From positions 475,709-539,708 of the forward strand of contig CAWCXU010000013.1 of assembly GCA_963799625.1 (NCBI GenBank): DNA of 64,000 nucleotides, given 5' to 3'. Shown here in pieces: positions 23,683 through 47,032 of the stretch (its first letter is position 1; each line of letters opens with the position of its first letter). The position numbers and the translations under genes were made by a program. This DNA comes from an uncultured Actinomycetes bacterium (GTDB taxonomy: Bacteria > Actinomycetota > UBA4738 > HRBIN12). The notes beneath the pieces were generated by a model. The model was not told the DNA's origin. It worked only from the letters and a program-made list of their open reading frames with translations, and searched no databases.

Positions 23683-23806
23683 GCCTTCTACGTTCCTCTT
23701 TATAGAAACCCTCGGCCCTCGGGGCCTGCCTCCGGGGCCGGACCGTACCACCGCCTCAACACAGAACCGCGACGATTCCATCCATCTCGGTTGGTACGCT
23801 CCCGGC

Positions 23807-27465: not shown

Positions 27466-28149
27466 TCACGACGCGTCGGCAACCCATCGGTACCCAACGC
27501 CCGGCTCGGTGACGATCAACGCCGGGGCCGAGGCGTCGTCGCCGAGCTTGCGCCGGAGCGCGCGGACGTAGGTGCGCAGGTACGTGGTCTCGGTGCCGTA
27601 CCCCTGCCCCCAGACGCGTCGCAGCAGCCACTGGTGGGTGAGCAGCTTGCCCGGGTTCGTCACCAGGACTTCGAGCAGGCCGTACTCGGTCGGCGTCAGG
27701 TGGACCTGCTCCCCGTCGATCGTCACGAGCTGCTTGGCGAGGTCCACCTGAAGCGCCCCGAAGACGAGGAGTGGGGCGTCGGGCTCACCCGAACCCTTGC
27801 GCCGCAGGGCTGCGCGTGAACGGGCGAGGAGCTCTTCCATCCCGAACGGCTTGGTGACGTAGTCGTCGGCGCCGGCGTCGAGCGCGGCGACCTTGTCGCT
27901 CTGCCCCTCGCGGACCGACAGGACGATGATCGGGACCTCGGAGAAGGCGCGCACCCGGGTGATCACCTCGGTGCCGTCCATGTCGGGCAGGCCGAGGTCG
28001 AGCAGGATCAGCTCGGGGTGCTGGCTCGCGGCGGCGACCACGCCCTCGTCGCCGGTCCCCACGGTCTCGACGACGTAGCCGTGCGCCTCCAGGCTCGTGC
28101 GGAGCGCGCGGCGGATCTGCGGCTCGTCGTCGACCACCAGCACCTTCAC
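27466..28149 (-). CDS. OmpR/KdpE-family response regulator (RR1)
   Basis: VKVLVVDDEPQIRRAL...LILLDLGLPDMDG...DAGADDYVTKPF; winged-helix C-terminus (LTPTEYGLLEVL...GVGYRW). GTG start overlaps the HK1 stop (GTGA). Confidence 0.85.
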   Translation of the reverse strand: MKVLVVDDEPQIRRALRTSLEAHGYVVETVGTGDEGVVAAASQHPELILLDLGLPDMDGTEVITRVRAFSEVPIIVLSVREGQSDKVAALDAGADDYVTKPFGMEELLARSRAALRRKGSGEPDAPLLVFGALQVDLAKQLVTIDGEQVHLTPTEYGLLEVLVTNPGKLLTHQWLLRRVWGQGYGTETTYLRTYVRALRRKLGDDASAPALIVTEPGVGYRWVADAS

Positions 28150-29627
28150 GCAGCCTCCTCCTCGATCGGCAGGTCCAGGACCAGGGCGGTCCCGCCGCCG
28201 GCGGTCTCCTCCACCCAGATCCGGCCGCCGTGCGCGGTCACGACGGCCCGCGCGATCGACAGTCCGAGCCCGCTGCCGGGCCGTTCGGGCTCCTCGCGGC
28301 CACGATAGAAGGGTTCGAACACCTTCTCGCGTTGCGCGAGAGGGATGCCCGGGCCTTCGTCGGCGACCCGCACGCGCACGGACGCGCCCTCGCGCGACAG
28401 GTGGATCCGGACGGTCCCGTTCGGCGGCGAGTGGCGCGCGGCGTTCTCCACGAGGTTGGTGAGCACCTGATCGAGCTGCATCGGGTCGGCCGCGATCTCC
28501 GGGAGCTCGTCGGGCACCTGCAGCTCCACCCGCACGCGCTCGAGCTGGGGCCGCATCCGCGCCACCACCGCGCCGGCGACCTCCTCGACGTCGGTCGGCA
28601 CGCGACGCGGGATCAACGCGCCGGCGCGGATCCGGGCGAGATCCAGGATGTTGCCCACCAGCCGGTTCAGGCGATCGGTCTCCTCGAGGATCGTCGTGAG
28701 GAGCTCGCGCTGCTGCGTCGCGTCGTGCACGGTCGAGGCGTCGAGCAGGCTCGTGACGCCGGCCTTGATGGACGCGAGCGGCGTGCGCAGGTCGTGTGTG
28801 ACCGAGGAGAACATCGCCGCGCGCAGCTGGTTGGTCTCGGCGTCGAGCTGGGCGAGCCGCGCGCGCGCGTCGAGGCGGGCACGGTCCAGCGCCACCGCCG
28901 CCTGGCGCGTCGCCGCCTCCAGGAGCTCGCGCTCGCGCCGCGTGAACGAACGCGCGCGCGCGGGCCGCTCGGTCGTCAGCGTCCCCAAGGGGACCGTCGC
29001 GATCACGACCGGCACGATCTCGGTCGGGCCGCCCAGCTCGGCGCCCTCGCGCCGCGCGATCGCGCTCATCTCCTGCCCGTCGAGCACCACTTGGACGCTG
29101 CAGATCGCCAGCCCGAACGGATCCAGCAACAGCGCGACGAACTCGTCGAGCACCCGATCGGGGACGTCGCCGGACAAGAGCTTGCTCGACAGGAGCGCGA
29201 GCAACCGGGCCTCGCGCTCGCGCTCGGTGGCCCGGCGCCGCTCCGCCGCGGCGTTCCCGACCACCAGACCCACCACAGCGGCGATCGCGAGGAACACCAC
29301 CGAGGCGATCACGTCGCGGAGTTGCTCGAACTGGAACCCGTTCGCGGGCTGCTCGATCCACGGCAGGGCCACCGATGACAGCAGCGCCGTCACGATCCCC
29401 GCCCAGATGCCGCCGCTGACCGCCGCGATCGTGACGGCGAGCATGAAGATCGCGACCCCCGCCCCGGGCCCGAGATCCCTGGTCAGGGCCACCAAAACGG
29501 CGCCGCACAGGGCCGCGCCGACCCCGATCGCGAGGGCGCGCGCCGAGATCTGGTCCACCCGCGGTTCCCTGCGATCCATCGCCACGACGGACACGCTACC
29601 GCCTCTATCTGCGCGATCCGGGCGCAT
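28146..29627 (-). CDS. KdpD-type sensor kinase lacking the N-terminal KdpD/Usp domains (DUF4118-like 4-TM + GAF + HisKA + HATPase_c), HK1
   Basis: Four TM helices then ...SSVTHDLRTPLASIKAG (H-box), N-box NLVENAARHSP, and DEGPGIP, GSGLGLSIARAVVTAHGG. Confidence 0.85.
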   Translation of the reverse strand: MRPDRADRGGSVSVVAMDRREPRVDQISARALAIGVGAALCGAVLVALTRDLGPGAGVAIFMLAVTIAAVSGGIWAGIVTALLSSVALPWIEQPANGFQFEQLRDVIASVVFLAIAAVVGLVVGNAAAERRRATEREREARLLALLSSKLLSGDVPDRVLDEFVALLLDPFGLAICSVQVVLDGQEMSAIARREGAELGGPTEIVPVVIATVPLGTLTTERPARARSFTRRERELLEAATRQAAVALDRARLDARARLAQLDAETNQLRAAMFSSVTHDLRTPLASIKAGVTSLLDASTVHDATQQRELLTTILEETDRLNRLVGNILDLARIRAGALIPRRVPTDVEEVAGAVVARMRPQLERVRVELQVPDELPEIAADPMQLDQVLTNLVENAARHSPPNGTVRIHLSREGASVRVRVADEGPGIPLAQREKVFEPFYRGREEPERPGSGLGLSIARAVVTAHGGRIWVEETAGGGTALVLDLPIEEEAA

Positions 29628-29654
29628 CCGGGGCGGGCCGGAGGGGAGAGGTCG

Positions 29655-29703
29655 TTCACGTTTTCTTCACGCGCCCTCGGGCATCCTTCACGCCCCGCTC
29701 ACG
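29655..29703. promoter_or_regulatory. Phased hexamer direct repeats TTCACG (x3) + CTCACG at 29655, 29666, 29687, 29698 (spacings 11/21/11 bp). Candidate OmpR/KdpE-type response-regulator box in the HK1/trkA divergent intergenic region.
   Basis: Read directly: cgTTCACGttttcTTCACGcgccctcgggcatccTTCACGccccgCTCACGct. The helical-turn phasing is typical of winged-helix RR tandem sites. Lies 28-76 bp upstream of the HK1 ORF start. Confidence 0.35.
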
Positions 29704-29917
29704 CTCATGCGACGACGCTTAGCGGCGGAAAGAGGGTCTCGTTGACCCCGGTGTCGGACCGTCACCCCCGGCACCGGTCGATGCGAGACGGAACACGAAC
29801 GAACCCACTTTCCTCCGAGCCCGTCTGCGGGGCCGGCAGCTCCCTCCAGCTGTCGGCCCGCAGGCATATCTGGGGCCGATCACGCCAAGGTCACGAGGCG
29901 GCGCACGCTGTCAGGCG

Positions 29918-30604
29918 GTGCACACGCGGGTACGCTTCCCGGCCATGCGGGTCCTGATCATGGGATGCGGTCGGGTCGGTTCCGAGCTCTCCCACGCGCT
30001 CGGCGACGCCGGTCACGAGGTCACGGTGATCGACAAACGCGCCGAGGCGTTCGATCGCTATCCCCCCGGCGAGCACGCGCGCACGATCGTCGGTCTCGGG
30101 TTCGACCGCGACGTGCTCGAGGAGGCCGGGATCCGCGAGGCCGATGCGTTCATCGCGGTCTCGAGCGGCGACAACTCCAACATCGTGTCGGCGCGCGTCG
30201 CGCTCGAGCACTACCACGTGCCCAAGGTGATCGCGCGGATCTTCGACCCGCGGCGCGCCGAGATCTACGAGCGGCTCAACATCCCGACGGTCGCGACGAC
30301 CACGTGGGGCGTGAAGCAGTTCCAGCTGATGCTGCTGCACACCGGCAAGGAGGTGCGCGAGAGCCTCGGCGGCGGCGAACTCCTGCGGGTGCGCGTCCCG
30401 GTGCCGAGCCACCTGGTCGGCAAGCCGGTGTCGACGTTGAACGTCGACGGGCACATCCTCGTCGCCGGCGTGTCGCGCGGCGGCAAGGGGTTCATCCCGT
30501 CGATCGACAGCACGCTGCAGGAGGGCGACTTCCTGATCGTCACGATGGGCAAGGACTACATGGACGAACTCGACACATTGCTCGAGCCGACGGAGCACCG
30601 CTGA
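29918..30604 (+). CDS. trkA: TrkA/CeoB-like K+ uptake regulatory protein (RCK/KTN NAD-binding N domain + TrkA_C)
   Basis: MRVLIMGCGRVGSELSHAL (GxGxxG Rossmann) ...C-terminal TrkA_C (LLRVRVPVPSHLVGKPVSTLNVDGHILVAGVSRGG). Stop overlaps the next trkA start (TGATG). Confidence 0.85.
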   Translation: MHTRVRFPAMRVLIMGCGRVGSELSHALGDAGHEVTVIDKRAEAFDRYPPGEHARTIVGLGFDRDVLEEAGIREADAFIAVSSGDNSNIVSARVALEHYHVPKVIARIFDPRRAEIYERLNIPTVATTTWGVKQFQLMLLHTGKEVRESLGGGELLRVRVPVPSHLVGKPVSTLNVDGHILVAGVSRGGKGFIPSIDSTLQEGDFLIVTMGKDYMDELDTLLEPTEHR

Positions 30605-31269
30605 TGCGGGTCGTGGTGACCGGGGGCGGCGCGATCGGACGCCACGTCGCAGGCGACCTCAGCACGCGCGGCCACGACGTCACGCTGATCGAGCAGGACA
30701 AGCAGACCGTCGAGGACCTCCGCGAGGAGATCCCCGAGGTGACGATCATGCTCGGCGACGCGTGCGAGCCGTGGGTGCTCGACGACGCGGAGCTCGCCCG
30801 CGCCGACGTGGTGGTCGCCGCTACCGGCGATGACGAGGACAACCTGGTCACGTCGCTGCTCGCCAAGCAGGAGTTCGCCGTGCCGAGGGTGCTCGCGCGC
30901 GTCAACCACCCGAAGAACGAGTGGCTCTTCACCGATCAGTGGGGTGTCGACACCGCCGTCTCGCCGCCCCACATGCTGACGTCGATGGTGGAGGAGGCCG
31001 TCACGACGGGCGACCTGGTGCAGCTCCTGCGGCTCGAGGGCGGCCAGATCTCGATCGTCGAGATGAAGCTCGCCGCCGACTCGCCGGCCGTCGGCAGGCC
31101 GATCTACGAGCTCCGCCTGCCCAACGACGCCGCGATCGTCGCGATCGTGCGCGACGCGCACGTCGTGATCCCGCAGCCCGAGACCGTGCTCGGCGGCGGC
31201 GACGAGCTGGTGGCGCTCGCCGCGATCGGGACCGAGCAGGCGCTTCGGGCCGCGATCGTCGGCGACTGA
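30604..31269 (+). CDS. trkA: Second TrkA/CeoC-like K+ uptake regulatory protein
   Basis: MRVVVTGGGAIGRHVAGDL...TrkA_C (ISIVEMKLAADSPAVGRPIYELRLPNDAAIVAIVRD). Confidence 0.85.
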   Translation: MRVVVTGGGAIGRHVAGDLSTRGHDVTLIEQDKQTVEDLREEIPEVTIMLGDACEPWVLDDAELARADVVVAATGDDEDNLVTSLLAKQEFAVPRVLARVNHPKNEWLFTDQWGVDTAVSPPHMLTSMVEEAVTTGDLVQLLRLEGGQISIVEMKLAADSPAVGRPIYELRLPNDAAIVAIVRDAHVVIPQPETVLGGGDELVALAAIGTEQALRAAIVGD

Positions 31270-31282
31270 GGCGGTCCGCCGC

Positions 31283-31975
31283 TCAGCCGCTCGGCTCGAC
31301 CTGCCAGCGATACCCGATCCGTGACTCGGTCACGATCGCGCGTGGGTGCCGCGGGTCGGGTTCGATCTTGCGCCGGAGCTGACTGACGAAGACCCGGAGC
31401 GCCTCGACGTCGGGGGCGCCGTCGGCGTCCCACACCTCGGCCAGCAGCCAGTCGTGCGTGCGGAGCACGCCCGGCGCGGTGGCGAGCGCCTCCAGCAGGC
31501 GCCACTCGGTCGGCGTCAGGTGGACCTGGTCCTCGCCGCGCCGCACGGATCGCGCGCCCAGGTCGATCCGGATGTCGTCGACCTCGAACCGGGTGCCGCT
31601 CGGCTCGGGCGCCGCCCGCCGCAGGAGCGCCCGTACCCGGGCCAGGAGCTCGGCAGCGCCGAACGGCTTCGTCAGGTAGTCGTCGGCGCCGAGGTCGAGC
31701 GCGGCGACCTTGTCCTGCTCGGCGTCGCGCACCGACAGCACGAGGATCGGCACCGAGCTGAACCGCCGGATCTCCCGGCAGGCGGTGAGCCCGTCGACGT
31801 GCGGCAGGTTGAGATCGAGCACGACCAGGTCGGGCTCGCGGTCGCGGACCGCGCCGACCGCGGCGCGCCCGTCGGTCGCCGTCGCGACGCGGAAGTCGCG
31901 GGCGAGCAGCGTCCGCTCCACCGCGCGGAGGATCTGGGGCTCGTCGTCGACGACGAGGATCAACGGGTCGCTCAT
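31283..31975 (-). CDS. OmpR/KdpE-family response regulator (RR2)
   Basis: MSDPLILVVDDEPQILRAV...LVVLDLNLPHVDG...winged helix LTPTEWRLLEAL...IGYRW. ATG overlaps the HK2 stop (ATGA). Confidence 0.85.
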   Translation of the reverse strand: MSDPLILVVDDEPQILRAVERTLLARDFRVATATDGRAAVGAVRDREPDLVVLDLNLPHVDGLTACREIRRFSSVPILVLSVRDAEQDKVAALDLGADDYLTKPFGAAELLARVRALLRRAAPEPSGTRFEVDDIRIDLGARSVRRGEDQVHLTPTEWRLLEALATAPGVLRTHDWLLAEVWDADGAPDVEALRVFVSQLRRKIEPDPRHPRAIVTESRIGYRWQVEPSG

Positions 31976-33360
31976 GCCGCCGGGAGCCGGAACCCCATCG
32001 TCGTTCCCCCGCCCGGGGTGTCGGTCGCCCAGATCTCGCCGCCCATCGCGGTGACGAAGCCCTTGCAGATCGCGAGACCGAGCCCGGCACTCAGGCGCGG
32101 CGACCCTTCCTGCAGCTTGTAGAACGGTGTGAAGAGCAGCTGCTGGTCGCCGAACGCGAGGCCGGGCCCGTGGTCGACCACCTGCACGACGACCACGCCG
32201 TCCGCCCGCTCCGCGGCGAGCTCGATCCGCCGGTCGGCGGCGCCCCGCACGGCGCGCGCCGCGTTCTCCACGAGGTTGGTGACGACCCGCTCCACGAACA
32301 GCTCGTCGCCCCGGACGCGGACGGCGTCGTCGGCGACCCGCACGTCGATCTCGACGCCCGGCCAGCGCTCGCGCACGCCGTCGACCGCCGGACCGACGAG
32401 ATCGTCCAGATCGACGAGGTCGGCGTGGGCCACGAGCGTGCCCGACTCGATCCGGGACATGTCGAGCAGGTTCGTGATCAGCTGCGCGAGCCGCCCGGCC
32501 GACGCGCGAACGTCCTCGAGCACGACCCGGGCGCTCTCGGGGTCGAACGTCTCGCGGTCGAGGATGTCGGTGACCGACGCGGTGATGGCGGCGATCGGGC
32601 TCTTCAGCTCGTGCGAGGCGGCCGCCAGCAACGATCGCCGCATGTCCTCGGTCCGCTTGTACAGCTCGGCCTCGCGGAGCTCCTGCTCCAGCCGCTCGGC
32701 CTGCACCACCAGCGCGACCTCGTCGGCGAACGTGCGGACGACACGGGTCTCGGCGGCCGTCAACGCCGGGCGATCCCCGACGAAGACCAACGAACCGACC
32801 CGCGCCGGGCCGACCCGCAGCGGGAACGCGGTCGCCGAGGAGGCGGCCGGATCGTCCTCGTCGCGGACCGAGGCCAGGACGAACCCGAGGCGTTCGGCCG
32901 CGCGACCGAGCGCCGGGGTAAGGCCCTCCGCCCGCTCGGACACCAGCACGTGGCTCAGATCGAACAGCAGCCGGACCTCCGCCTCGCGGTCCTCGGCCGC
33001 GGTCGCGCGCTCGTGCGCGACGCCCACCAGCCACGAGATCAACAGCGACATCGCGATGAACGCGAAGAACGCGACGACGTACTCGGTCCGCTCGAGGTCG
33101 AAGGTGCCGTAGGGGGGGAGGAACCCGACGTTGTACAGCGCCGACCCGACGATCGCGGCGACGATGCCGGGGACCACCCCACCGAGCCACGACGCCACCA
33201 CCACCGGCACGAGGAACGCGAACGCCGTCAGGGTGTGCGACAGCTGCACCCGGAAGGGCTCCATCACGGCGGCGATCGCGAGGGGGCCGAGCGTGGCGAC
33301 GAGGTAGGCGGCGCCGAGCAGCCACGAGGGCCTGCGGACGCCCAGCACACGCGTCGACAC
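31972..33360 (-). CDS. KdpD-type transmitter-only sensor kinase HK2 (4-TM + GAF + HisKA + HATPase_c)
   Basis: TM block ...NVGFLPPYGTFDLERTEYVVAFFAFIAMSLLIS (DUF4118-like FLPPY motif), H-box AAASHELKSPIAAITAS, HATPase motifs. GTG start at 33360 preferred. An alternative ATG at 33465 would overlap the divergent permease gene. Confidence 0.8.
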   Translation of the reverse strand: MSTRVLGVRRPSWLLGAAYLVATLGPLAIAAVMEPFRVQLSHTLTAFAFLVPVVVASWLGGVVPGIVAAIVGSALYNVGFLPPYGTFDLERTEYVVAFFAFIAMSLLISWLVGVAHERATAAEDREAEVRLLFDLSHVLVSERAEGLTPALGRAAERLGFVLASVRDEDDPAASSATAFPLRVGPARVGSLVFVGDRPALTAAETRVVRTFADEVALVVQAERLEQELREAELYKRTEDMRRSLLAAASHELKSPIAAITASVTDILDRETFDPESARVVLEDVRASAGRLAQLITNLLDMSRIESGTLVAHADLVDLDDLVGPAVDGVRERWPGVEIDVRVADDAVRVRGDELFVERVVTNLVENAARAVRGAADRRIELAAERADGVVVVQVVDHGPGLAFGDQQLLFTPFYKLQEGSPRLSAGLGLAICKGFVTAMGGEIWATDTPGGGTTMGFRLPAA

Positions 33361-33398
33361 GGCCGCGGTCCGATCCACGCTCGCAACGATAGTCGCCC

Positions 33399-33418
33399 TT
33401 ACGGAACCCTTATCCCGC
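33399..33418. promoter_or_regulatory. 20-mer TTACGGAACCCTTATCCCGC: two half-sites (TTACGG / TTATCC) 11 bp apart, in the HK2 / kimA-like-2 divergent intergenic region. 17/20 identical to a motif upstream of kdpF.
   Basis: Direct sequence comparison with 38151..38170 (TTACGGATCCCGTATGCCGC). Confidence 0.35.
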
Positions 33419-33437
33419 GCTTCTAGCGTGGACCGTG

Positions 33438-35891
33438 ATGCAGACCGACGACGCACCTCCCGCAACGTCCGCGGCGCCCGAGGCCGCGAGCCCTCCCTCC
33501 CGGCCGGCCGCGCGCCCGCCCTTGCCCCGGAGCTCGAGCTACGGGGTCAAGCGGGCGTTCCTCGGACCGGCGCTCCCGACCGCTCACCTGGTGCACGAGC
33601 GGCTCGGCAAGATCGCCGCGCTCGCGATCTTCAGCTCGGACGCGCTCTCCTCGGTCGCCTACGCCACCGAGGAGATGCTGAAGACCCTGGTGATCGCCGG
33701 GGTCGGCGTGCTCGCGTTCTCGCTGATCGTGCCGTTGTCGGGGGCGATCGTGGCCGTCCTCGCGATCCTCGTCTTCAGCTATCGGCAGACGATCAAGGCC
33801 TACCCGTCGGCGGGCGGCGCCTACATCGTCACGAAGGACAACTTCGGACTGATCCCAGCCCAGGTGGCCGGCGTCGCGCTGCTGACGGATTACGTGCTGA
33901 CCGTCGCGGTGTCGGTGTCCGCCGGCGTCGCGGCGATCATCGCGCTCGTGCCGGTGACCGCGCCGTTCCGCGTCGAGATGGCCGTCGCGTCGATCGCCCT
34001 GATCGCCTACGGCAACCTCCGGGGCGTCCGGGAGTCCGGGAAGATCTTCGCGGCGCCGACCTACGTGTTCATCGGGTGCATCATGTCGCTGCTCATCGTC
34101 GGGGTCGTGCGCGCGGCGACCGGGTCGCTCGCCGTGCCGCCGCCGGTCACGACAGGCGGCGCGCTGTCGGCCTTCGCGCTCGTCCCCGCGTTCGTCGCGT
34201 TGCACGCGCTGGCATCGGGCAGCACGGCGATGACGGGCGTGGAGGCGATCTCGAACGGCGTGCCGGCCTTCAAGCCCGTCGAATGGAAGCACGCGAGGCA
34301 GACGCTCGTCGCGCTCGGGCTGCTTCTGGCCACGATGTTCATGGGGATCTCGTGGCTCGCCGCGAAGCTCCAGGTCGCGCCGGACTTCACCGGGCGCTCG
34401 ACGGTGGTCGCCGACATCGGCAAGGCGGTCTACGGCACGAGCCCGCTCGGGCACGCCGCCTTCGCCCTGCTGCAGATCGCGACGGCGCTGATCCTCGTGC
34501 TCGCGGCCAACACGGCCTACGCCGACTTCCCACGTCTGGCGAACTTCCACGCCGGGGACGACTTCTTGCCGCGGCAGTTCACGACGCGCGGGCACCGGCT
34601 CGTGTTCTCGAACGGGATCTTGGCGCTGTCGGCGGCCGCGATGCTGCTGGTCGTCCTGTTCCGCGCCGACGTGACGCGGCTGATCCCGTTCTACGCGATC
34701 GGGGTGTTCACCTCGTTCACGCTGTCGCAGGCGGGGATGGCCAAGCGGCACCTCAGGCTTCGCGAGGAAGGGTGGCGGGTCGGCCTCGCGATCAACGGGG
34801 TCGGCGCCGTCGCGACGGGGGTCGTGCTCGCGATCGTGGCCCGGACGAAGTTCGCCGAGGGCGCCTGGGTGATCTTGATCCTCGTGCCGGTGATGGTTGT
34901 CCTGCTGGTGCGGATGAACCACCAGTACGAGCGCGAGAAGAGGGAGCTCGAACGGGACCTGAAGGCGTTCACGCCGCCGACCAGCCGGCCCCCGATCACG
35001 ATCTTGCTCGTCGAGGACCTCGACCCCAAGACCGTGCACGCGTTGCAGTACGCCCGGACGATCCGCTCCGAGCGGACGATCGCCGTGCACGTCGAGGAGG
35101 ACCGCGCGCGCACGCAGGCGCTCGAGGCCGCGTGGCAGACCGCCGGACTCGACGCGATCCCGCTGCGGATCGTGCGCGGCCGCGGCGACGAGGCGGCGCG
35201 CCTCGCCGGCTTCCTCGCGGCCTACGAGCGTGAGGACCGGGACGCGATCGTGATCGTGCCCGTCCCTCACGAACGGACGTTGCGCGAGCACGTCGCCGAC
35301 CGGCGCGCAGGCGCGCGGCTGCACCGCGCGCTCCTGTCCTACGGTCATGTGCGGGTCACCATGGTCCGCGACCACCCCGACGGCGTGCACCCCTTGCAGC
35401 GTGACGAGGACGGGCGACCGGTCGTGCGCCTCACCGCCCGGCAGACGCACGACGTCGTCGTGTTGGTCGACAAGCTCGACCGAGCGACGCTGCAGGCCGT
35501 CGCGTACGCGCTCGGGCTCGGCACGCGGTCGGTCCGCGCGGTCCACGCCGCCGTCGACCCCGATCGGGCAACCCGCCTCGCGGAGCGGTGGTCGGAGCTG
35601 CGTGCACCCGTCCCTCTCGACGTGATCGAGTGCTGGGACCGGGACGTGCCCCGCGCGGTCGAGCGCTACGTCGTCGGCATGGCGTCGGAGGGCACCGAGG
35701 TGACGGTCGTCATGCCCCGGCGCGACTACCCGCGCCTGCGCCAGCGGCTCCTGCACGACCGCACGAGCCGGAAGATCGAGCGGGCGCTCGGGCGCTACGC
35801 GCACATCGACGTCGCGGACATCCCGTACTACGTCCGGGGCGTGCCCGAGCCGATCGACGCGCGGGCCGAGGACGTCCTCGAGCCCGTCTGA
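33438..35891 (+). CDS. KimA-family K+ transporter homologue 2 (818 aa) with extended C-terminal cytoplasmic domain
   Basis: Same signature blocks as the paralogue (SSDALSSVAYATEEML, SYRQTIKAYPSAGGAYIVTKDNFG, MTGVEAISNGVPAFKP, LAANTAYADFPRLA, GVFTSFTLSQAGM) plus C-terminal ITILLVEDLDPKTVHALQYARTIRSERTIAVHVEED. Stop abuts the stop of the convergent kdpE-like gene. Confidence 0.75.
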   Translation: MQTDDAPPATSAAPEAASPPSRPAARPPLPRSSSYGVKRAFLGPALPTAHLVHERLGKIAALAIFSSDALSSVAYATEEMLKTLVIAGVGVLAFSLIVPLSGAIVAVLAILVFSYRQTIKAYPSAGGAYIVTKDNFGLIPAQVAGVALLTDYVLTVAVSVSAGVAAIIALVPVTAPFRVEMAVASIALIAYGNLRGVRESGKIFAAPTYVFIGCIMSLLIVGVVRAATGSLAVPPPVTTGGALSAFALVPAFVALHALASGSTAMTGVEAISNGVPAFKPVEWKHARQTLVALGLLLATMFMGISWLAAKLQVAPDFTGRSTVVADIGKAVYGTSPLGHAAFALLQIATALILVLAANTAYADFPRLANFHAGDDFLPRQFTTRGHRLVFSNGILALSAAAMLLVVLFRADVTRLIPFYAIGVFTSFTLSQAGMAKRHLRLREEGWRVGLAINGVGAVATGVVLAIVARTKFAEGAWVILILVPVMVVLLVRMNHQYEREKRELERDLKAFTPPTSRPPITILLVEDLDPKTVHALQYARTIRSERTIAVHVEEDRARTQALEAAWQTAGLDAIPLRIVRGRGDEAARLAGFLAAYEREDRDAIVIVPVPHERTLREHVADRRAGARLHRALLSYGHVRVTMVRDHPDGVHPLQRDEDGRPVVRLTARQTHDVVVLVDKLDRATLQAVAYALGLGTRSVRAVHAAVDPDRATRLAERWSELRAPVPLDVIECWDRDVPRAVERYVVGMASEGTEVTVVMPRRDYPRLRQRLLHDRTSRKIERALGRYAHIDVADIPYYVRGVPEPIDARAEDVLEPV

Positions 35892-36591
35892 TCACGCGTC
35901 GCCGGCCGGATCCTCGCTCCAGCGGTACCCGATCCCCGGCTCGGTGACGATCGCCCGCGGGCGCCGCGGATCGGGCTCGATCTTGCGCCGGAGCTGGCTG
36001 ACGAACACGCGAAGCACCTCGACGTCCTCGCCGTACGGGTCCCCCCAAACGCGTTCGAGCAGCCACCGGTGGGTGAGCAGCTTCCCGGGGTGGGCCGTGA
36101 GCGCCTCCAGCAGCGCCCACTCCGTCTTGGTGAGATGCACGTCGCCGTCACCCCGCGTGACGCGGTGCGCCTGCATGTCGATCGACACGCCGTCGAGCCG
36201 GTACCGCGCCGTCCCGTCGGCGGGGGCCCCCTCGCCCCGGCGCAGCAGCGCGCGGACGCGCGCGAGCAGCTCCCCCGTGCCGAACGGCTTCGTCAGGTAG
36301 TCGTCGGCCCCGAGGTCCAGCGCGGCGATCTTGTCGGGCTCCTCGTCGCGCACCGACAGCACGATGATCGGCACGCTGCTCCACGCGCGGATCCGCCGGC
36401 AGAACTCGAGCCCGTCGAGCACCGGCATGTTGAGATCGAGGACCACGAGATCAGGTGGCGACGCCGCCGCGAGGTCGAGTGCCAACAGCGCCGTCGGGGG
36501 CGAGCTCGACCGCATAGTCTCGCGCGACGAGCGATCGTTCGATCGCCTCGCGGATCTGCGGCTCGTCGTCGACCACGAGGATCTTCGTCAC
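35892..36591 (-). pseudogene. kdpE: KdpE-like OmpR-family response regulator (RR3) with a frameshift near 36503. Possible pseudogene or assembly indel.
   Basis: N-terminus VTKILVVDDEPQIREAIERSLVARDYAVELAPDG in one frame. The remainder (ALLALDLAAASPPDLVVLDLNMP...winged helix...GIGYRW) is in the frame of ORF 35892..36515(-). A 2-nt loss in a gcgc context fits. GTG start overlaps the kdpD3 stop (GTGA). Confidence 0.7.
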
Positions 36592-38087
36592 GAGGCCTCC
36601 TGCAACGAGAAGGCGAAGGTCGCGCCCCCGCCAGGGGTGTCCTCGAGCCAGATCTCCCCGCCCATCAGATCGACGAACCCCCGCGCGATCGCGAGCCCGA
36701 GGCCGGAGCCGAGTTTCGTCGTCCGCTCGTCGAGCCGGGCGAAGGGCAGGAACAGCTGGGTGCGCTCCCGCGTGGTGAGTCCCGCCCCGTGGTCGACGAC
36801 CTTGACCGCCACCTGGGCGCGCCGTTGCCCGTGGTCGGTCGGACCGATCTCGATCTCCACCGACGGGCTGCCGGCGGCCACGGCCGACCGCGCCGCGTTG
36901 TCCAGGAGGTTCGACACCACCCGGGGGAAGAAGACCGGGTCGGCGACCGCGACCTCGTGCCCGTCGTCGATCGCCATGGCGATGTGCACGTCGGGCCAGC
37001 GCAGCGCCGCCGCGTCGACCTCGGCCGTGACGGTCTCCGCGAGATCGACGTGCTCGAGGTGCGCCTGCACGACGCCGGCCTCGATCCGCGACAGGTCCAG
37101 GAGGTTCGCGACGAGCGCGTCGAGCCGGTCGGCCTCGCTGTCGACCACGTGCAGGACGGCCGCACGCTCCGCCGTCGAGCGCTCCACCTCGGGATCGAGC
37201 AGATCGGTGACCGACGCCTTGATCGCCGCCAGGGGGCTCCGGAGGTCGTGCGAGACCGCGGCGAGCATCGTTCGGCGCGCCGTCTCGGTCTGCCGGAGGA
37301 TCTCGGCGTCGGTCGCGGTGCGCAGCAGCCGGTCGCGCTCGAGCACCAGCGCGAGCTGGTCACAGACCGCACGCAGCACCCGCACCTCCGCGGGGTCCAG
37401 CGCGGGCCGCGACCCGGTGAGCACGATCAGGCCCAGCGTTCGGTTGCCGACCGACAACGGCAGCCGTTGCGGCGCGCGTCCCGGGTCGGCCGGGTTCCAC
37501 GACGGGCTGATCGACCCGGCCGGAGCGCCGACGACCACCCGCTCGTCGAGCCCACCCTCGGCGCCGCTCACGAACAGGGCGCCCGCGTCGAATCCGAACC
37601 GCGTGACGACGTCGCCGAGCAGCGCGCCGTACATCTCCTCTCCCGGACCCCGCACCACGAGGTCGCGGCTCAGCTCCTGCAGCGTCTGCAGCTCGCGCTC
37701 CTTCGCCTCGGCGACCTCCGCCCGCTCCACCGCACGGGAGTAGAGCGAGGAGATCAGCACCGACAACGCGAGGAACACGACGAGCGCGACCACGTGCTCG
37801 CCCCGTGCGATCACGAACGAGTCGTACGGCGGCAGGAAGAAGAAGTTGAACGTCAGGAACGACACGACCGCCGCGAGCAACCCCGGTCCCAGCCGCCCGA
37901 CGATCGCCGCGGCGACCACGACGACCAGGAAGGTGAAACCGATCGTGAGCGGCTGCAAGGTGTCGCGGAACGGGAGGAACACGAGCACGACAGCCGCCGG
38001 ACCGGCGACCGCGATGAGGTACCCGATCGCGCGAAGACGTCCTCTCGGCGCCGCGCGGAGCAGCGCGAGGGTGCGTGCGGTGCGCAT
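36588..38087 (-). CDS. kdpD: KdpD-type transmitter-only sensor kinase HK3, divergent from kdpFABC
   Basis: FLTFNFFFLPPYDSFVIARGEHVVALVVFLALSV (DUF4118 signature), GAF-like middle, H-box AAVSHDLRSPLAAIKAS, HATPase (LLDNAARSAV, DHGAGL, GSGLGLAIARGFVDLMGG). Confidence 0.85.
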   Translation of the reverse strand: MRTARTLALLRAAPRGRLRAIGYLIAVAGPAAVVLVFLPFRDTLQPLTIGFTFLVVVVAAAIVGRLGPGLLAAVVSFLTFNFFFLPPYDSFVIARGEHVVALVVFLALSVLISSLYSRAVERAEVAEAKERELQTLQELSRDLVVRGPGEEMYGALLGDVVTRFGFDAGALFVSGAEGGLDERVVVGAPAGSISPSWNPADPGRAPQRLPLSVGNRTLGLIVLTGSRPALDPAEVRVLRAVCDQLALVLERDRLLRTATDAEILRQTETARRTMLAAVSHDLRSPLAAIKASVTDLLDPEVERSTAERAAVLHVVDSEADRLDALVANLLDLSRIEAGVVQAHLEHVDLAETVTAEVDAAALRWPDVHIAMAIDDGHEVAVADPVFFPRVVSNLLDNAARSAVAAGSPSVEIEIGPTDHGQRRAQVAVKVVDHGAGLTTRERTQLFLPFARLDERTTKLGSGLGLAIARGFVDLMGGEIWLEDTPGGGATFAFSLQEAS

Positions 38088-38150
38088 GGTCGAAGGATAG
38101 CCAGCGCGGCAACGACGCTCGACCGTCCGGACCGCCCGCGGACGAGACCT

Positions 38151-38170
38151 TTACGGATCCCGTATGCCGC
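38151..38170. promoter_or_regulatory. 20-mer TTACGGATCCCGTATGCCGC in the kdpD3 / kdpF divergent intergenic region. Conserved with 33399..33418. A further TCACGG hexamer lies about 25 bp downstream.
   Basis: Read directly; 17/20 identity to the HK2-permease2 intergenic motif. Confidence 0.35.
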
Positions 38171-38234
38171 ACGCGTCGTTCCTCACGGTTGCCTGATGTC
38201 CGCTGACTACGGTCGGGGCCAGGAGGTGAGGACC

Positions 38235-38318
38235 GTGTGGGATCTCTGGGTCGGCGTCATCACCGCGGTGTTCTTCGTGGTGGCCTTCGCCCTCGTCCGC
38301 TGGTTCGACGCGATATGA
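38235..38318 (+). CDS. Small hydrophobic leader peptide (27 aa, single TM) preceding kdpF/kdpA
   Basis: AGGAGG then GTG..., VWDLWVGVITAVFFVVAFALVRWFDAI*. Stop overlaps the next small ORF (ATGA). Confidence 0.4.
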   Translation: MWDLWVGVITAVFFVVAFALVRWFDAI

Positions 38319-38403
38319 ACATCGCCGATGCGCTCGAGCTCGCGCTCGCGCTCGCGCTGCTCGTCTATCTCGTGTACGTGTTGATCCGCCCGGAGCGATT
38401 CTG
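38314..38403 (+). CDS. kdpF: KdpF-like K+-transporting ATPase small subunit (29 aa)
   Basis: MNIADALELALALALLVYLVYVLIRPERF*. The LVYLVYVLI core resembles KdpF (…LGYLVYALI…). Its TGA overlaps the kdpA ATG. Confidence 0.55.
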
Positions 38404-40073
38404 ATGGGCACGATCGTCGTCTACACGCTCCTGTTGATCGTGCTGACGCCGCCGCTGGGCGCCTACCTGTACCGCGTCTACACGAGCGAGCGCACCGGCC
38501 GGATCGAGGGCGTCTTCTATCGGGTGCTCGGCGTGAACCCCGACGCCGAGCAATCGTGGCGCCGGTACGCGACGGCGGTCCTGTGGTTCAGCGTGATCAG
38601 CATGGTGTTCGTCTACCTCGTGCTGCGGTGGCAACAGCATCTACCGCTGAACCCCGAAGGCTTCGCGGGCGTGAACCCGTACCTGTCGTTCAACACCGCC
38701 GCGAGCTTCATGACCAACACGAACTGGCAGTCCTACGGCGGCGAGACGACGATGAGCTACCTCTCCCAGATGCTCGCGCTGACGTTCCAGAACTTCGTGT
38801 CGGCCGCGGTGGGCATCGCGGTCGTGATCGCGATGATCCGCGGGTTCACGCGCGCCGGCACCGACAACGTCGGGAACTTCTGGCGCGACCTCGTGCGCGG
38901 CGTCGTCTACGTCCTGTTGCCGATGTCCGTGCTGGTCGCGATCGTCCTCATGAGCCAGGGTGTCGTGCAGACCCTCAGCCCCTCCGCGTCGGTCACCGGG
39001 ATCCAGGGGTTCGCGCAGGTGATCGCGCGCGGTCCGGTCGCGAGCCAGATCGCGATCAAGCAGCTCGGCACGAACGGCGGCGGGTTCTTCAACGTGAACT
39101 CGGCGCACCCGTTCGAGAACGCGACGCCGATCTCGAACTTCGTCGAGGCGTTCGCGATCCTGTGGATCGCCGCGGCGCTGACCTACACGTTCGGCAAGAT
39201 GGTCGGCAACGTCCGCCAGGGCTGGGTGCTGTTCGGCGTGATGTGGATCCTGCTGGTCGCCGGTCTGGCGCTCACCGTCCCCGGCGAGCGGACCGCCACC
39301 CCCGCGATGCAAGCGGCGGGCGTCGCCGGCAGACCGCGCCCAACCTCGAGGGCAAGGAGGTGCGCTTCGGACCCGACGCGTCGTCGCTGTGGTCGGTCGC
39401 CACCACCGACGCCTCGAACGGGAGCGTCAACTCGATGCTCGACTCGTACCAGCCGCTCGGCGGGCTCGCGCCGATGTTCAACATCGCGATCGGCGAGGTG
39501 ATCTTCGGCGGGGTCGGCAGCGGGCTGTACGGGATGATCTTCTACGTCGTGATCGCCGTGTTCATCGGCGGGCTGATGGTCGGCCGCACCCCCGAGTACC
39601 TCGGCAAGAAGATCGGCGCGCGCCAGGTCAAGATCGTCGTGATCGCCGTGCTCGTGCCGTTCCTGGTGGCGCTCGCGTTCACGGCGTTGGCGGTGGTGAC
39701 ACCGTCGGGCCTGGCCGGGCCGCTCAACACCGGCCCTCACGGGTTCAGCGAGATCTTCTACGCGTACCTGTCGCAGGGGAACAACAACGGTTCGGCGTTC
39801 GCGGGGCTCACCGCGAGCTCGCCGTACTACACGATCACCGGCGGCATCGCGATGCTCGTCGCCCGCTTCGTGCCGCTGATCGCGGCGCTCGCGCTCGGCG
39901 CGAGCGTGGGCAGGGAGCGCACCGTGCCGTTCACGGCGGGGACGCTGCGGACCGACACGGGACTGTTCGCCGGCCTGCTGACCGGCGTGATCGTGATCAT
40001 CGGCGCCTTGACGTTCCTGCCCGGGCTCGCCCTCGGTCCGATCGTCGAGCACCTGCAGAAGGGGCTGAGCTGA
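38404..40073 (+). pseudogene. kdpA: KdpA (K+-transporting ATPase subunit A) with a -1 frameshift near 39330. Possible pseudogene or assembly indel.
   Basis: N-terminal 300 aa (MGTIVVYTLLLIVLTPPLGAYLYRVY...) are in ORF 38404..39501. The remainder (NLEGKEVRFGPDASSLWSVATTDASNGSVNSMLDSYQPLGG...EVIFGGVGSGLYGM...) is in the frame of ORF 38556..40073. The junction …AGVAG|QTAPNLEGKE aligns with KdpA if one c is restored in gccggc(c)agacc. Confidence 0.8.
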
Positions 40074-40074
40074 G

Positions 40075-42142
40075 ATGTCGGTGACCGCCCCGCCGCAGAC
40101 AGCGCCCACCACGCAGACGACGATCCGCTCGCGTCCCTTGTTCGACGGACCGATCGTGCGTCAGGCGATCGTCGACAGCTTCACGAAGCTGAACCCGCGC
40201 ACGCTCCTGCGCAACCCGGTGATCTTCGTCGTCGAGGTCGTGTCCATGGTGGTCACGATCCGGATCGTCGCCGACGCCGTCAACGGCGGTGCGGTCGCGT
40301 TCGACACCGCGATCGGACTCGGGCTGTGGTTCACGGTGCTGTTCGCGAACTTCGCCGAGGCGATGGCGGAAGGGCGCGGCAAGGCGCAGGCCGAGACCCT
40401 GCGGCGCACCCGCGCCGACCTCGTGGCCCGGCGGCTCACCGCCGACGGCACCGAGGAGACCGTGCAGGCGTCCGACCTGCGCGCCGGCGACGTCGTGATG
40501 GTGTCGGCCGGCGAGCTGATCCCGGGCGACGGCGAGATCGTCGAAGGGATCGCGTCGGTCGACGAGTCGGCGATCACCGGCGAGTCGGCCCCCGTGATCC
40601 GGGAGTCCGGCGGCGACCGCTCGGCCGTGACCGGCGGCACCAAGGTGCTCTCGGACTGGATCAAGGTCCGGATCACGGCCGAGCCCGGCGAGGGCTTCAT
40701 CGACCGGATGATCCGGCTCGTCGAAGGCGCCGAGCGCCAGAAGACGCCGAACGAGATCGCGCTGTCGCTCCTGCTCGTGAAGTTCACGATCATCTTCCTG
40801 ATGGTGATCGTGGCCCTCCAGCCGTTCGCCATCTACGCGGGCAACCGCGTGAGCGACGCCGTGCTGATCGCCCTGTTCGTGTGCCTGATCCCGACCACGA
40901 TCGGGGGCCTGCTGTCCGCGATCGGGATCGCCGGGATGGACCGGCTCGTCCAGCGCAACGTGCTCGCGATGAGCGGCCGCGCGGTCGAGGCCGCCGGCGA
41001 CGTGTCCGCGCTGCTGCTCGACAAGACCGGCACGATCACCCTCGGGAACCGGCAGGCGGTGGCGTTCCTCCCGGCGCCCGGCGTCGACGAGCGGCGAGCT
41101 CGCCGAGGTCGCGCAGATGGCCTCGCTCGCCGACGAGACCCCCGAGGGTCGCTCGATCGTCGTGCTCGCGAAGGAGCGCTTCAACCTGCGCGAGCACGAC
41201 TTCATGGAGGCCCACGCCGAGTTCGTCCCGTTCACCGCGCAGACGCGGATGAGCGGCGTGAACCTCAACGGCAGCGAGATCCGCAAGGGCGCCGTCGACG
41301 CGATCCGCGGCTGGTCCGGGCGGGACCTGCCGCCCGAGCTCGACGAGGCGGTCGAGCGCATCTCGCGCGCGGGCGGCACACCGCTCGCGGTCGCGAAGGA
41401 CCACGTCCCGATGGGGGTCGTCGAGCTCAAGGACATCATCAAGGACGGACTGGTCGAGCGGTTCGACCAGCTGCGGCGGATGGGGATCCGCACGGTGATG
41501 ATCACCGGCGACAACCCGCTGACCGCGGCCGCGATCGCGCAGGAGTCCGGTGTCGACGATTTCCTCGCCGAGGCGACGCCCGAGACCAAGATGGCGCTGA
41601 TCCGCAAGGAGCAGGAGGGCGGCGTGCTCGTCGCGATGACCGGCGACGGCACGAACGACGCCCCCGCGCTCGCGCAGGCGGACGTCGGGGTCGCGATGAA
41701 CACCGGCACGTCGGCGGCGAAGGAGGCCGGCAACATGGTCGACCTCGACTCGAACCCCACGAAGCTGATGGACATCGTCGAGATCGGCAAGCAGCTGCTG
41801 ATCACCCGTGGCGCGCTCACAACCTTCTCGATCGCGAACGACGTCGCGAAGTACTTCGCGATCATCCCGGCGATGTTCGTGACGACGTATCCGGCCCTCG
41901 ATCGGTTGAACGTGATGCACCTGACCTCGCCGCAGTCCGCGATCTTGTCGGCGGTGATCTTCAACGCGCTGATCATCGTGGCGCTCGTGCCGCTCGCGCT
42001 CCGCGGCGTGCGCTACCGGCCGGTCGGCGCCGAGGGTCTGCTGCGCCGCAACCTGCTGATCTACGGTCTCGGCGGGATCATCGTGCCCTTCATCGGCATC
42101 AAGCTGATCGACATGTTCCTCGGGCTGGTGCATTTCCCGTGA
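40075..42142 (+). pseudogene. kdpB: KdpB (P-type ATPase catalytic subunit) with a frameshift near 41092. Possible pseudogene or assembly indel.
   Basis: N-terminus through [24 protein letters not shown] is in the frame of ORF 40075... The C-terminus ([29 protein letters not shown]...[22 protein letters not shown]...[25 protein letters not shown]...) is in ORF 41117..42142. The 4-nt stretch cggc between the frames indicates a +1/-2 indel. Confidence 0.8.
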
Positions 42143-42726
42143 TCCGCACGATCGTCCGCGCGCTGCTCGCCACGCTCGTGCTCGCGGCCCTGACGGGGAT
42201 CGCGTACCCGCTGGTGATGACCGGGATCGGCCAGGTTGCGTTCGCCCACGACGTGAACGGCTCGCTCGTCGACGTCAACGGTCAACCGGTCGGCAGCTCG
42301 CTCATCGGACAGACCTGGAACGGCCCGGAGTGGTTCTACGGGCGACCGTCGGCGGTCGGCGACGACGCGTCGACGTCGTCGGGCTCGAACCTCGGGCCTC
42401 GGTCCCAACAGCTCGCCGACGACATCGAGACGCAGGCGCGCCAGATCCTCAAGATCGAGTCGCCCTACACACCCGGCCTCACGACGGCCAGCATCCCGGT
42501 CGACCTGGTGACCTCCTCGGGCAGCGGCCTCGACCCCGATATCTCGGTCGCCGCCGCCCGGTTCCAAGCGCCGCGGATCGCGGCCGTTCGCGGGCTCCCG
42601 CTCGACCAGGTGCTGAGCCTGATCGACGCGCACACCGCCCACGAGACCCTCGGGTTCCTCGGAGAGCCGCGGGTGAACGTCCTGGAGCTCAACCTCGCGC
42701 TGCAGGGGGTGGCGCCACGAGCGTGA
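42139..42726 (+). CDS. kdpC: KdpC (K+-transporting ATPase subunit C)
   Basis: [35 protein letters not shown]...[25 protein letters not shown] (KdpC signature). GTG overlaps the kdpB stop (GTGA). Confidence 0.8.
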
Positions 42727-46895: not shown

Positions 46896-47032
46896 CGAAC
46901 CTCCCACAGGGATACGAGCTCCCCGGGCTTTGAGCCGCGGGGTCAAGGACCGGAGAAGGATACCGGACCTCGTGGTACGTGACCTGCGGAAGAAGGTCTC
47001 CCGGGGGCCCGGCTGCCGCTACGATGCAGCGC

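Follow-up and report, generated by a model that had tools for sequence, protein, structure and literature searches.

KimA is known from Firmicutes, where cyclic di-AMP (c-di-AMP) controls it at two levels, by a riboswitch and by binding to the protein itself. In the Bacillus subtilis protein, residues D36, Y43, T121, T230 and Y377 serve K+ binding or the gate, E233 proton coupling and D117 trans-inhibition (Tascon et al., PMC6994465), the cytosolic domain is composed of 4 helices and a 5-stranded sheet, and R337, H579, N580, Q581 and S582 make up the c-di-AMP pocket (PMC10284832). The KimA-like Vnz_27465 and Vnz_15480 of Streptomyces venezuelae have been recognised at annotation level and are uncharacterised (PMC10117811), and the mycobacterial CeoB/CeoC 'Trk' system consists of a half-size TrkA pair encoded beside the gene for the membrane protein Rv2690c (PMC8358298, PMC12216072), whose Tn-seq phenotype in M. 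tuberculosis is shared with the adjacent ceoB (PMC12216072). Here we analyse perm2 (33438-35891, plus strand), a gene of the KimA family that lies between KdpDE-like two-component systems (TCS) in a 64-kb stretch of DNA (the window; ~71% GC) from an uncultured Actinomycetes bacterium (GCA_963799625.1, contig CAWCXU010000013.1, positions 475,709 to 539,708). The family assignment proved solid, and it seems to us probable that this tandem-domain K+/H+ symporter is an old paralogue which has come to stand under a kdp-type promoter, beside a paralogue of the Kdp regulator.

The permease and its tandem cytosolic domains

Genes in the window were called from the GC content of third codon positions (GC3) and from Pfam and NCBIfam profile matches. 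When perm2 was compared with the PDB by phmmer, B. subtilis KimA (6S3K/8B70/8B71) was the single match (E 7.3e-105, aa 36-569 against 3-522), and it was also the best Foldseek match (8B70; E 7.6e-33, TMt 0.77, 36% identity) of an AlphaFold2 model built on 43 homologues (pLDDT 76.8, pTM 0.74). The helices of this model span aa 33-510, and the LeuT/APC fold with 12 transmembrane (TM) helices was recovered in perm2. For comparison, a scan of one genome per species yielded 62 related loci (numbered L001 onwards), all of them in metagenome-assembled genomes (MAGs) of uncultured Actinomycetota, the closest being 89% identical. The perm2 equivalents of KimA D36, Y43, T121, T230, Y377, E233 and D117 are D68, Y75, T155, T266, Y419, E269 and D151, respectively, and these seven residues are invariant in 37-38 of the 38 sequences of the perm2 clade and in 27-28 of the 28 sequences of the clade of perm1, the other KimA-like gene of the window (25089-27425, minus strand; 778 aa, 39% identical to perm2). 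Sequence and model thus give a solid assignment of perm2 as a predicted KimA-family (KUP-related, LeuT-fold) K+/H+ symporter, and the original prediction of a second KimA-like paralogue was borne out.

An ordinary amino-acid or polyamine permease, with a merely coincidental neighbourhood of K+ genes, might be suspected from the annotation, given that the sole Pfam match of perm2 is AA_permease_2 (E 1.7e-19), that no NCBIfam model claims it and that its homologues carry the public names 'amino acid transporter' and 'APC family permease'. However, KimA itself is deposited under the label 'APC family permease', and perm2 matches it at E 7e-105, with the K+-coordinating and proton-coupling residues invariant, a KimA-type cytosolic domain present, and a linkage to trkA, kdp and KdpDE-like genes that has been kept in dozens of genomes. 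We therefore regard such a permease as very improbable and the label 'amino acid transporter' as uninformative for perm2, because of its homology to KimA and its invariant K+/H+ residues.

Beyond TM12, perm2 contains two homologous cytosolic domains, CD1 (aa 520-644; nt 34995-35369) and CD2 (aa 670-798; nt 35445-35831), which share 25% identity (E 6e-11) and are each modelled with 5 strands and 4 helices. The same tandem arrangement is found in perm1 (28% identity between its CD1 and CD2, E 2e-9), and the extended architecture that had been noticed in both permeases indeed corresponds to this second cytosolic domain. CD2 of perm1 aligned to the entire KimA domain (residues 466-602, E 2.9e-9), with HNQN at the place of the KimA HNQS motif; CD2 of perm2 aligned weakly (E 0.11) and reads HDRT there, and its CD1 reads ADRR. 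The equivalent of KimA R337 (R379) was kept in 36 of the 38 perm2 sequences and is a serine in perm1 of the window. An Rfam search of the whole window at the gathering threshold, and of 29600-29960 at E<=10, returned no riboswitch, nor was a ydaO/c-di-AMP riboswitch found with Rfam near either permease or trkA.

When the CD1-CD2 region was searched by phmmer against 1.84 billion representatives, 933 proteins matched at E<=1e-3. Several of them are full-length proteins of 750-850 aa that span both CDs, others match CD2 alone, and Microthrixaceae homologues of ~650 aa have a single CD2-like domain. Because several full-length proteins cover both CDs, the tandem-CD form is a widespread, undescribed subfamily that extends beyond this genome. 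In a literature search with subscription journals outside its scope, we found neither a description of tandem-domain KimA proteins nor a report of two-component control of kimA.

The perm2 frame, its junctions and the promoter spacer

The perm2 frame is a genuine gene (GC3 0.96). The longest open reading frame (ORF) runs from GTG 33435 to 35891 (plus strand) and would encode 818 aa, but the ATG at 33438 is the codon kept in relatives, 7-8 nt past a conserved TAGCGT/TACCGT, and one of them (L002) has CTG in place of the GTG. From this ATG the product has 817 aa, and the predicted length of 818 holds only as a number of codons including the stop. TTG 33522 was tried as an alternative start and ruled out, given the fixed distance of ATG 33438 from the -10 and the coding-like GC3 up to 33520.

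At its 3' end, perm2 abuts the convergent kdpE-like gene RR3 (35892-36591, minus strand) stop to stop, just as had been claimed, the sequence at 35889-35894 reading gtc tga directly followed by tca cgc. The two stops lie between -53 nt (an overlap) and +9 nt apart in 10 of the 10 loci that share the gene order of the window and, since this distance is held across the 10 loci, the absence of an intergenic spacer is a conserved feature. A scan of the convergent junction for intrinsic terminators found none. With neither a spacer nor a detectable intrinsic terminator, the 3' ends of the perm2 and RR3 transcripts must overlap, and perm2 and the HK3-RR3 operon could in this way affect each other by antisense or transcriptional interference.

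At its 5' end, perm2 is divergent from the histidine kinase gene HK2 (31972-33378, minus strand), which is followed by the response regulator gene RR2 (31283-31975, minus strand; 230 aa, OmpR/KdpE-like by Pfam and NCBIfam). Thus, two KdpDE-like pairs do flank perm2, one divergent and one convergent. The distance of 75 bp between perm2 and HK2 given in the original prediction assumed an HK2 start at ~33360 and had to be corrected: the start kept in relatives is GTG 33378, 7 nt past a TATCGT on the minus strand, leaving a spacer of 59 bp (33379-33437) between this GTG and ATG 33438. Within the spacer we recognised a candidate -10 of the HK2-RR2 operon (TATCGT, 33386-33391, minus strand; GTG 7 nt on, so that a leaderless transcript is predicted here too), a candidate response-regulator box (CTTACGGAACCCTTAT, 33398-33413, plus strand), which is a direct repeat CTTAC/CCTTA with an 11-bp period, and a candidate perm2 -10 (TAGCGT, 33424-33429, plus strand). 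Because the ATG lies only 8 nt past this -10, the perm2 mRNA is probably leaderless. In the loci with the window's gene order (type A, see below), the plus strand of the spacer reads ACGATAG, CCTTACGGnnCCCTTAYCC, a 10-nt gap, TAGCGT, 7-8 nt and ATG; ACGATAG and CCAC are invariant or nearly so in the alignment, and the combination of TAGCGT/TACCGT, 7-8 nt and ATG was kept in 9 of 10 loci. Scans of the spacer for a sigma-70 -35/-10 consensus pair and for intrinsic terminators were both negative, and the missing -35 fits an activator-dependent promoter for perm2.

Similar boxes are present in the promoter of the kdp operon, where TTTACGGATCCCGTAT (38150-38165) and CTCACGGTTGCCTGAT (38182-38197), both on the plus strand and 32 bp apart, precede a TACGGT at 38209-38214, which is in turn followed by a Shine-Dalgarno sequence and a small ORF. 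The distance from box to -10 is 10 nt at perm2 (to TAGCGT) and 11 nt at the proximal kdp box (to TACGGT). With up to one mismatch, the box pattern YTYACGGNNNCCKKAT matched the window 5 times, against 0.75 expected. The conserved 20-mer of the spacer in the original prediction (33399-33418, TTACGGAACCCTTATCCCGC) agrees at 17 of 20 positions with TTACGGATCCCGTATGCCGC at 38151-38170, in the HK3/kdpF spacer. Could both this similarity and the abutting stops have arisen by chance in a GC-rich genome? By our estimate, ~3 matches of 17/20 are expected in the window (77-bp query against 128 kb), and one other match with 3 mismatches was indeed found, within a gene, so that the pairwise match alone is not significant. 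Nevertheless, the 20-mer core CCTTACG..CC.TA is invariant in the orthologous spacers of 10 related loci, though their coding regions are only 69-89% identical; its partner, likewise conserved, occupies the only other spacer between a TCS and its target gene, and the stops stay close in all 10 loci. Chance is therefore extremely improbable, and the 20-mer can be taken as conserved.

The shared box might also serve solely as an autoregulatory site of the HK2-RR2 and HK3-RR3 operons, with perm2 being constitutive. Two-component operons are often autoregulated, and 6 nt separate the box from the candidate HK2 -10 that follows it, as this explanation would have it. On the other hand, the box is oriented like the proximal kdp box and stands at a matching distance from its -10 (10 nt), a geometry that points towards the plus-strand gene, the perm2 promoter is without a -35 element, and at the kdp locus the candidate HK3 -10 has no box within 60 nt. 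We consider that autoregulation alone is an unlikely account of the box.

Gene orders, trees and the proposed change of control

Gene orders were mapped by tblastn within +/-10 kb of the locus of each relative. The order of the window (type A) was also found in L001-L006, L012, L014, L036 and L060. In ~30 further loci (type B), with 57-70% perm2 identity, the genes perm1, RR1 and HK1 on one strand are divergent from perm2, trkA1 and trkA2 on the other, the trkA pair directly following perm2 on the same strand with gaps of 40-80 bp (e.g. L007 10001-13800), and no HK2/RR2 was present within 10 kb. RR3-HK3 and the divergent kdpFABC are adjacent to this group in L026, L027 and L052, and elsewhere in the other type B loci. 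Altogether, perm1 and perm2 are both present in ~40 of the related MAG loci, KimA-like permeases adjoin pairs of a KdpD-half kinase and a KdpE-like regulator in ~40 loci, and HK2/RR2 are confined, within +/-10 kb, to the closest relatives. In the perm2 tree, the type A clade is nested among type B sequences; type B is therefore the older gene order.

In the trees, perm1 and perm2 fell into separate deep clades, with type A and type B sequences in both. The kinases HK2 and HK3 (36588-38087, minus strand) formed one clade and HK1 (28146-29627, minus strand) another, each with 200/200 bootstraps, and HK2 branched as the sister of every kdp-linked HK3, type B included (174/200). The regulator tree was congruent with that of the kinases and placed RR2 as sister to RR3. 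Identities followed the same pattern (HK2-HK3 44% vs HK1-HK2 31%; RR2-RR3 66% vs RR1-RR2 50%), and the recognition helices of RR2 and RR3 are identical (LRVFVSQLRRKIEPDPR), that of RR1 (27466-28149, minus strand) being different. From these topologies and identities it follows that the permease duplication is old and independent of HK2/RR2, and that HK2/RR2 are a paralogue of the kdp regulator. A tandem duplication of the unit RR1-HK1/perm2-trkA followed by reciprocal loss was also tried as the origin of HK2/RR2 and was ruled out by the trees.

These results bear directly on the origin first proposed for the locus, in which whole transporter and regulator modules (perm1 with HK1/RR1, perm2 with HK2/RR2) were duplicated and then sub-functionalised, for example into high and low K+ affinity. 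The window by itself gives that view some appeal, with two permease paralogues of the same architecture, three related kinase/regulator pairs inside 13 kb and each permease standing beside one of the pairs. Yet perm1 and perm2 both occur in type B loci that are without HK2/RR2 within +/-10 kb, HK2 and RR2 are sister to HK3/RR3 and not to HK1/RR1 (200/200), and HK1/RR1 is apparently the ancestral partner of both permeases, because the type B perm2 is divergent from HK1. Co-duplication of modules is thus not upheld, and we judge it quite unlikely. As for the congruence of trees that the original prediction had made its test, the permease and kinase/regulator trees are not congruent, in substance the outcome that it had named as refuting, and the separate horizontal acquisitions that it had coupled to that outcome are not indicated; the data rather point to a gene-order rearrangement together with a local kdp-regulator paralogue.

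The spacer upstream of HK1 has a different pair of direct-repeat boxes, TTCACG-N5-(C)TTCACG (29655-29703, plus strand), with a distance of 32 bp between the two; they are candidate RR1 sites in a layout that mirrors the kdp promoter. TTCACG-N5-TTCACG boxes are also present in the HK1/perm2 spacer of type B and are conserved across both types. The simplest reading of these sequences is that perm2 has moved from an RR1-type control, shared with trkA1/trkA2, to an RR2/RR3-type, kdp-like control. In the ancestral state, as in type B, a perm2-trkA1-trkA2 unit would have been divergent from HK1-RR1-perm1, with the TTCACG boxes in the spacer. In the lineage of the window, perm2 would then have been split from trkA1/trkA2 and placed behind the 59-bp bidirectional promoter shared with HK2-RR2, where a single OmpR-type direct-repeat box 10 nt upstream of TAGCGT would govern its leaderless mRNA. 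Under K+ limitation, HK2 would phosphorylate RR2, and RR2~P, possibly RR3~P too, would bind the box and activate perm2, so that K+/H+ symport would be induced alongside, or in place of, the Kdp ATPase. The box-binding regulator, the activating direction, the K+ signal and the transcription starts are all predictions from the DNA sequence.

Several points weigh against this change of control. The exact matches of YTYACGGNNNCCKKAT, which in the window fall only at 33398, 38150 and 38182, are circular, as these three sites were also the source of the pattern. The -10 hexamers and transcription starts of perm2 and HK2 were proposed from conservation only, and the closeness of the perm2 box to the HK2 -10 would allow autoregulation of HK2-RR2 instead of, or as well as, control of perm2. 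The trees were built by neighbour-joining with Kimura distances and 200 bootstraps from tblastn-derived sequences, and HK2/RR2 branch outside all HK3/RR3, so that the duplication may predate the rearrangement or HK2/RR2 may be of other origin. A KimA-type control of perm2 by c-di-AMP is uncertain, because HNQS is HDRT in its CD2. Finally, relative to L002, the window has a 1-nt insertion in RR3 (~36487), a 2-nt insertion in kdpA (~39330) and a 1-nt insertion in kdpB (~41095); should these shifts be real, the Kdp branch would be dead here. Such decay (pseudogenisation) is unlikely. A sequencing or assembly error is the more likely cause, because a cation/Ca2+ antiporter with two Na_Ca_ex halves is also split over two frames at ~51100 and split high-scoring segment pairs are frequent in related long-read MAG loci. 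A histidine kinase is possibly split as well (~6050).

Split KdpD, the TrkA pair and known systems

The three kinases (~470-499 aa) contain only DUF4118, a short GAF-like linker, HisKA and HATPase_c, which correspond to the C-terminal half of KdpD. The fused KdpD-N (PF02702)/Usp part is in none of them and is encoded separately by a stand-alone gene (43039-44226, minus strand; 395 aa, PF02702 E 1.6e-86, Usp), which in most related loci lies beside kdpC or beside a TCS. Because all three kinases are without that half, one KdpD-N module may serve them all. The best NCBIfam model of the three was KdpD (PRK10490), at 165-197 bits (165 for HK2) and thus below the equivalog cut-off of 1123; RR1 and RR2, at 243 and 197 bits, likewise scored best with KdpE without reaching its cut-off of 325, and the OmpR-family receiver and winged-helix domains are present in the regulators. 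'KdpDE-like' is thus a fair label, yet no pair passes the family thresholds. Only HK3/RR3 are linked to kdpFABC, HK2/RR2 being linked to perm2, and HK1/RR1 to perm1, the last gene of an HK1-RR1-perm1 group. Among the phosphotransfer specificity residues in the DHp helix, HK1, HK2 and HK3 show too few differences to judge insulation of the pairs. In four Microthrixaceae/Acidimicrobiales MAGs (L043 10001-15181, L048, L049 and L050), a single-CD KimA-like permease is followed on the same strand by KdpD-N/Usp, a KdpD-C-half kinase and a KdpE-like regulator, and kdpABC is missing from the surrounding 10 kb; in these genomes a split KdpDE appears to be dedicated to a KimA-type transporter.

The K+-homeostasis cluster is bounded by topA (21157-23781, minus strand) and an H+-pyrophosphatase gene (44619-46946, minus strand), and between these two no TrkH/KtrB-like gene was found in the window or in related loci. 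The cluster does contain two half-size RCK genes with TrkA_N and TrkA_C, trkA1 (from 29945, or 29918, to 30604) and trkA2 (30604-31269), both on the plus strand. Their position in type B suggests, by analogy with Rv2690c-ceoB-ceoC of M. tuberculosis, that the RCK (TrkA) pair works with the KimA-type permease; we take Rv2690c, presumably, to be a KimA homologue. Tentatively, and with considerable doubt, the analogy could be carried further, with tandem-CD KimA-type permeases as the membrane partners of orphan TrkA pairs of the CeoB/CeoC type, three kinases sharing one soluble KdpD-N/Usp protein, and KimA2, the perm2 product, captured by a Kdp-type promoter. If that were true, the locus would encode an RCK-gated KUP/KimA-type K+ uptake system, split-KdpD/KdpE paralogues would distribute a K+-limitation signal among KimA1, KimA2/TrkA and Kdp, and KimA2 would have been uncoupled from TrkA in this lineage.

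Upstream of trkA1 and downstream of the RR1 boxes we also noticed a structured element of ~160 nt (29727-29885, plus strand; GGAAAGAGG...CCACUUUCCUCCGAGCCCGUCUGCGGGGCCGGCAGCUCCCUCCAGCUGUCGGCCCGCAGGCAUAUCUGGGG), whose conservation exceeds that of the genes on either side in every type A locus. Paired cells make up 94%, compensatory changes were seen in 6 pairs and the G-U pairs favour the plus strand. The element had no match in Rfam, and its covariance model found it in type A loci only, with a partial match in the HK1/perm2 spacer of L010 and L055. The element may represent a new cis-regulatory RNA or a small RNA.

The kdp operon is divergent from HK3, whose stop overlaps the GTG start of RR3 (GTGA), and comprises kdpF (38315-38404), kdpA (38404-40084), kdpB (40075-42142) and kdpC (42139-42726), all on the plus strand. 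The small ORF upstream of kdpF (38235-38318, plus strand; VWDLWVGVITAVFFVVAFALVRWFDAI) encodes a hydrophobic peptide of 28 aa, has a strong AGGAGG Shine-Dalgarno and overlaps kdpF by ATGA; it is kept in relatives as MWD(I/V)WV...RWFD, and its product could act as a leader peptide or as an additional small subunit of Kdp. Beside topA, an MFS transporter and a thymidylate kinase are fused in one ORF of 679 aa (19108-21147, minus strand; Pfam MFS_1 and Thymidylate_kin).

Compared with KimA of B. subtilis (YdaO; 6S3K, 8B70, 8B71), perm2 is 36% identical from the TM domain through the first cytosolic domain, shares the LeuT fold with 12 TM helices, keeps all the K+-site, gate and proton-coupling residues, and has equivalents of R337, Y118 and N237. 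It differs from KimA in having two tandem cytosolic domains and 817 aa instead of one domain and 607 aa, and in the c-di-AMP contact motif, HNQS in KimA, HDRT in perm2 and HNQN in perm1. Whereas KimA is under riboswitch control, no ydaO-type c-di-AMP riboswitch was found upstream here, and perm2 seems to be expressed under the control of a two-component system. The next structural matches after KimA are the SLC12 cotransporters (KCC, NKCC, NCC; E ~1e-13 to 1e-15 over ~950 aligned columns), which likewise join an APC-fold TM domain to a large C-terminal cytosolic domain, in their case of two alpha/beta lobes, but at 11-14% identity, with an rmsd of ~25 A and a TM score of ~0.35.

As to the regulators, HK1-HK3 carry the membrane, GAF and transmitter half of the E. 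coli KdpD, RR1, RR2 and RR3 match KdpE best, HK3/RR3 are divergent from kdpFABC, and the promoter boxes are direct repeats with the 11-bp period that is usual at sites of OmpR-family regulators. In contrast to E. coli, where KdpD is one protein, the N-terminal KdpD/Usp module is here a separate gene, the kinase/regulator pair exists in three paralogous copies, of which two are associated with KimA-type permeases or trkA instead of kdp, and all pairs score far below the NCBIfam equivalog cut-offs. The Streptomyces and mycobacterial cases, all of them uncharacterised, share with this locus an actinobacterial KimA homologue and a half-size TrkA pair beside a membrane protein, respectively, and neither two-component control nor a tandem CD is described for them in PMC10117811, PMC8358298 and PMC12216072.

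Against the c-di-AMP control known for KimA, the locus suggests that another solution may exist in soil Actinomycetota, namely control of KimA importers with duplicated CDs by two-component systems derived from KdpDE. One lineage appears to have altered this wiring, a regulator paralogue and a kdp-type box now standing over perm2, which would make a compact example of regulon rewiring after the duplication of a two-component system, built from a single box in a promoter of 59 bp and two regulators whose recognition helices are identical. The locus also shows KdpD naturally divided between a sensor gene and kinase genes, and it provides a lead on the membrane partner of the TrkH-less actinobacterial TrkA pairs, the mycobacterial CeoBC included. 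Overall, it appears to be a known transporter type in a new regulatory variant and not a new kind of system.

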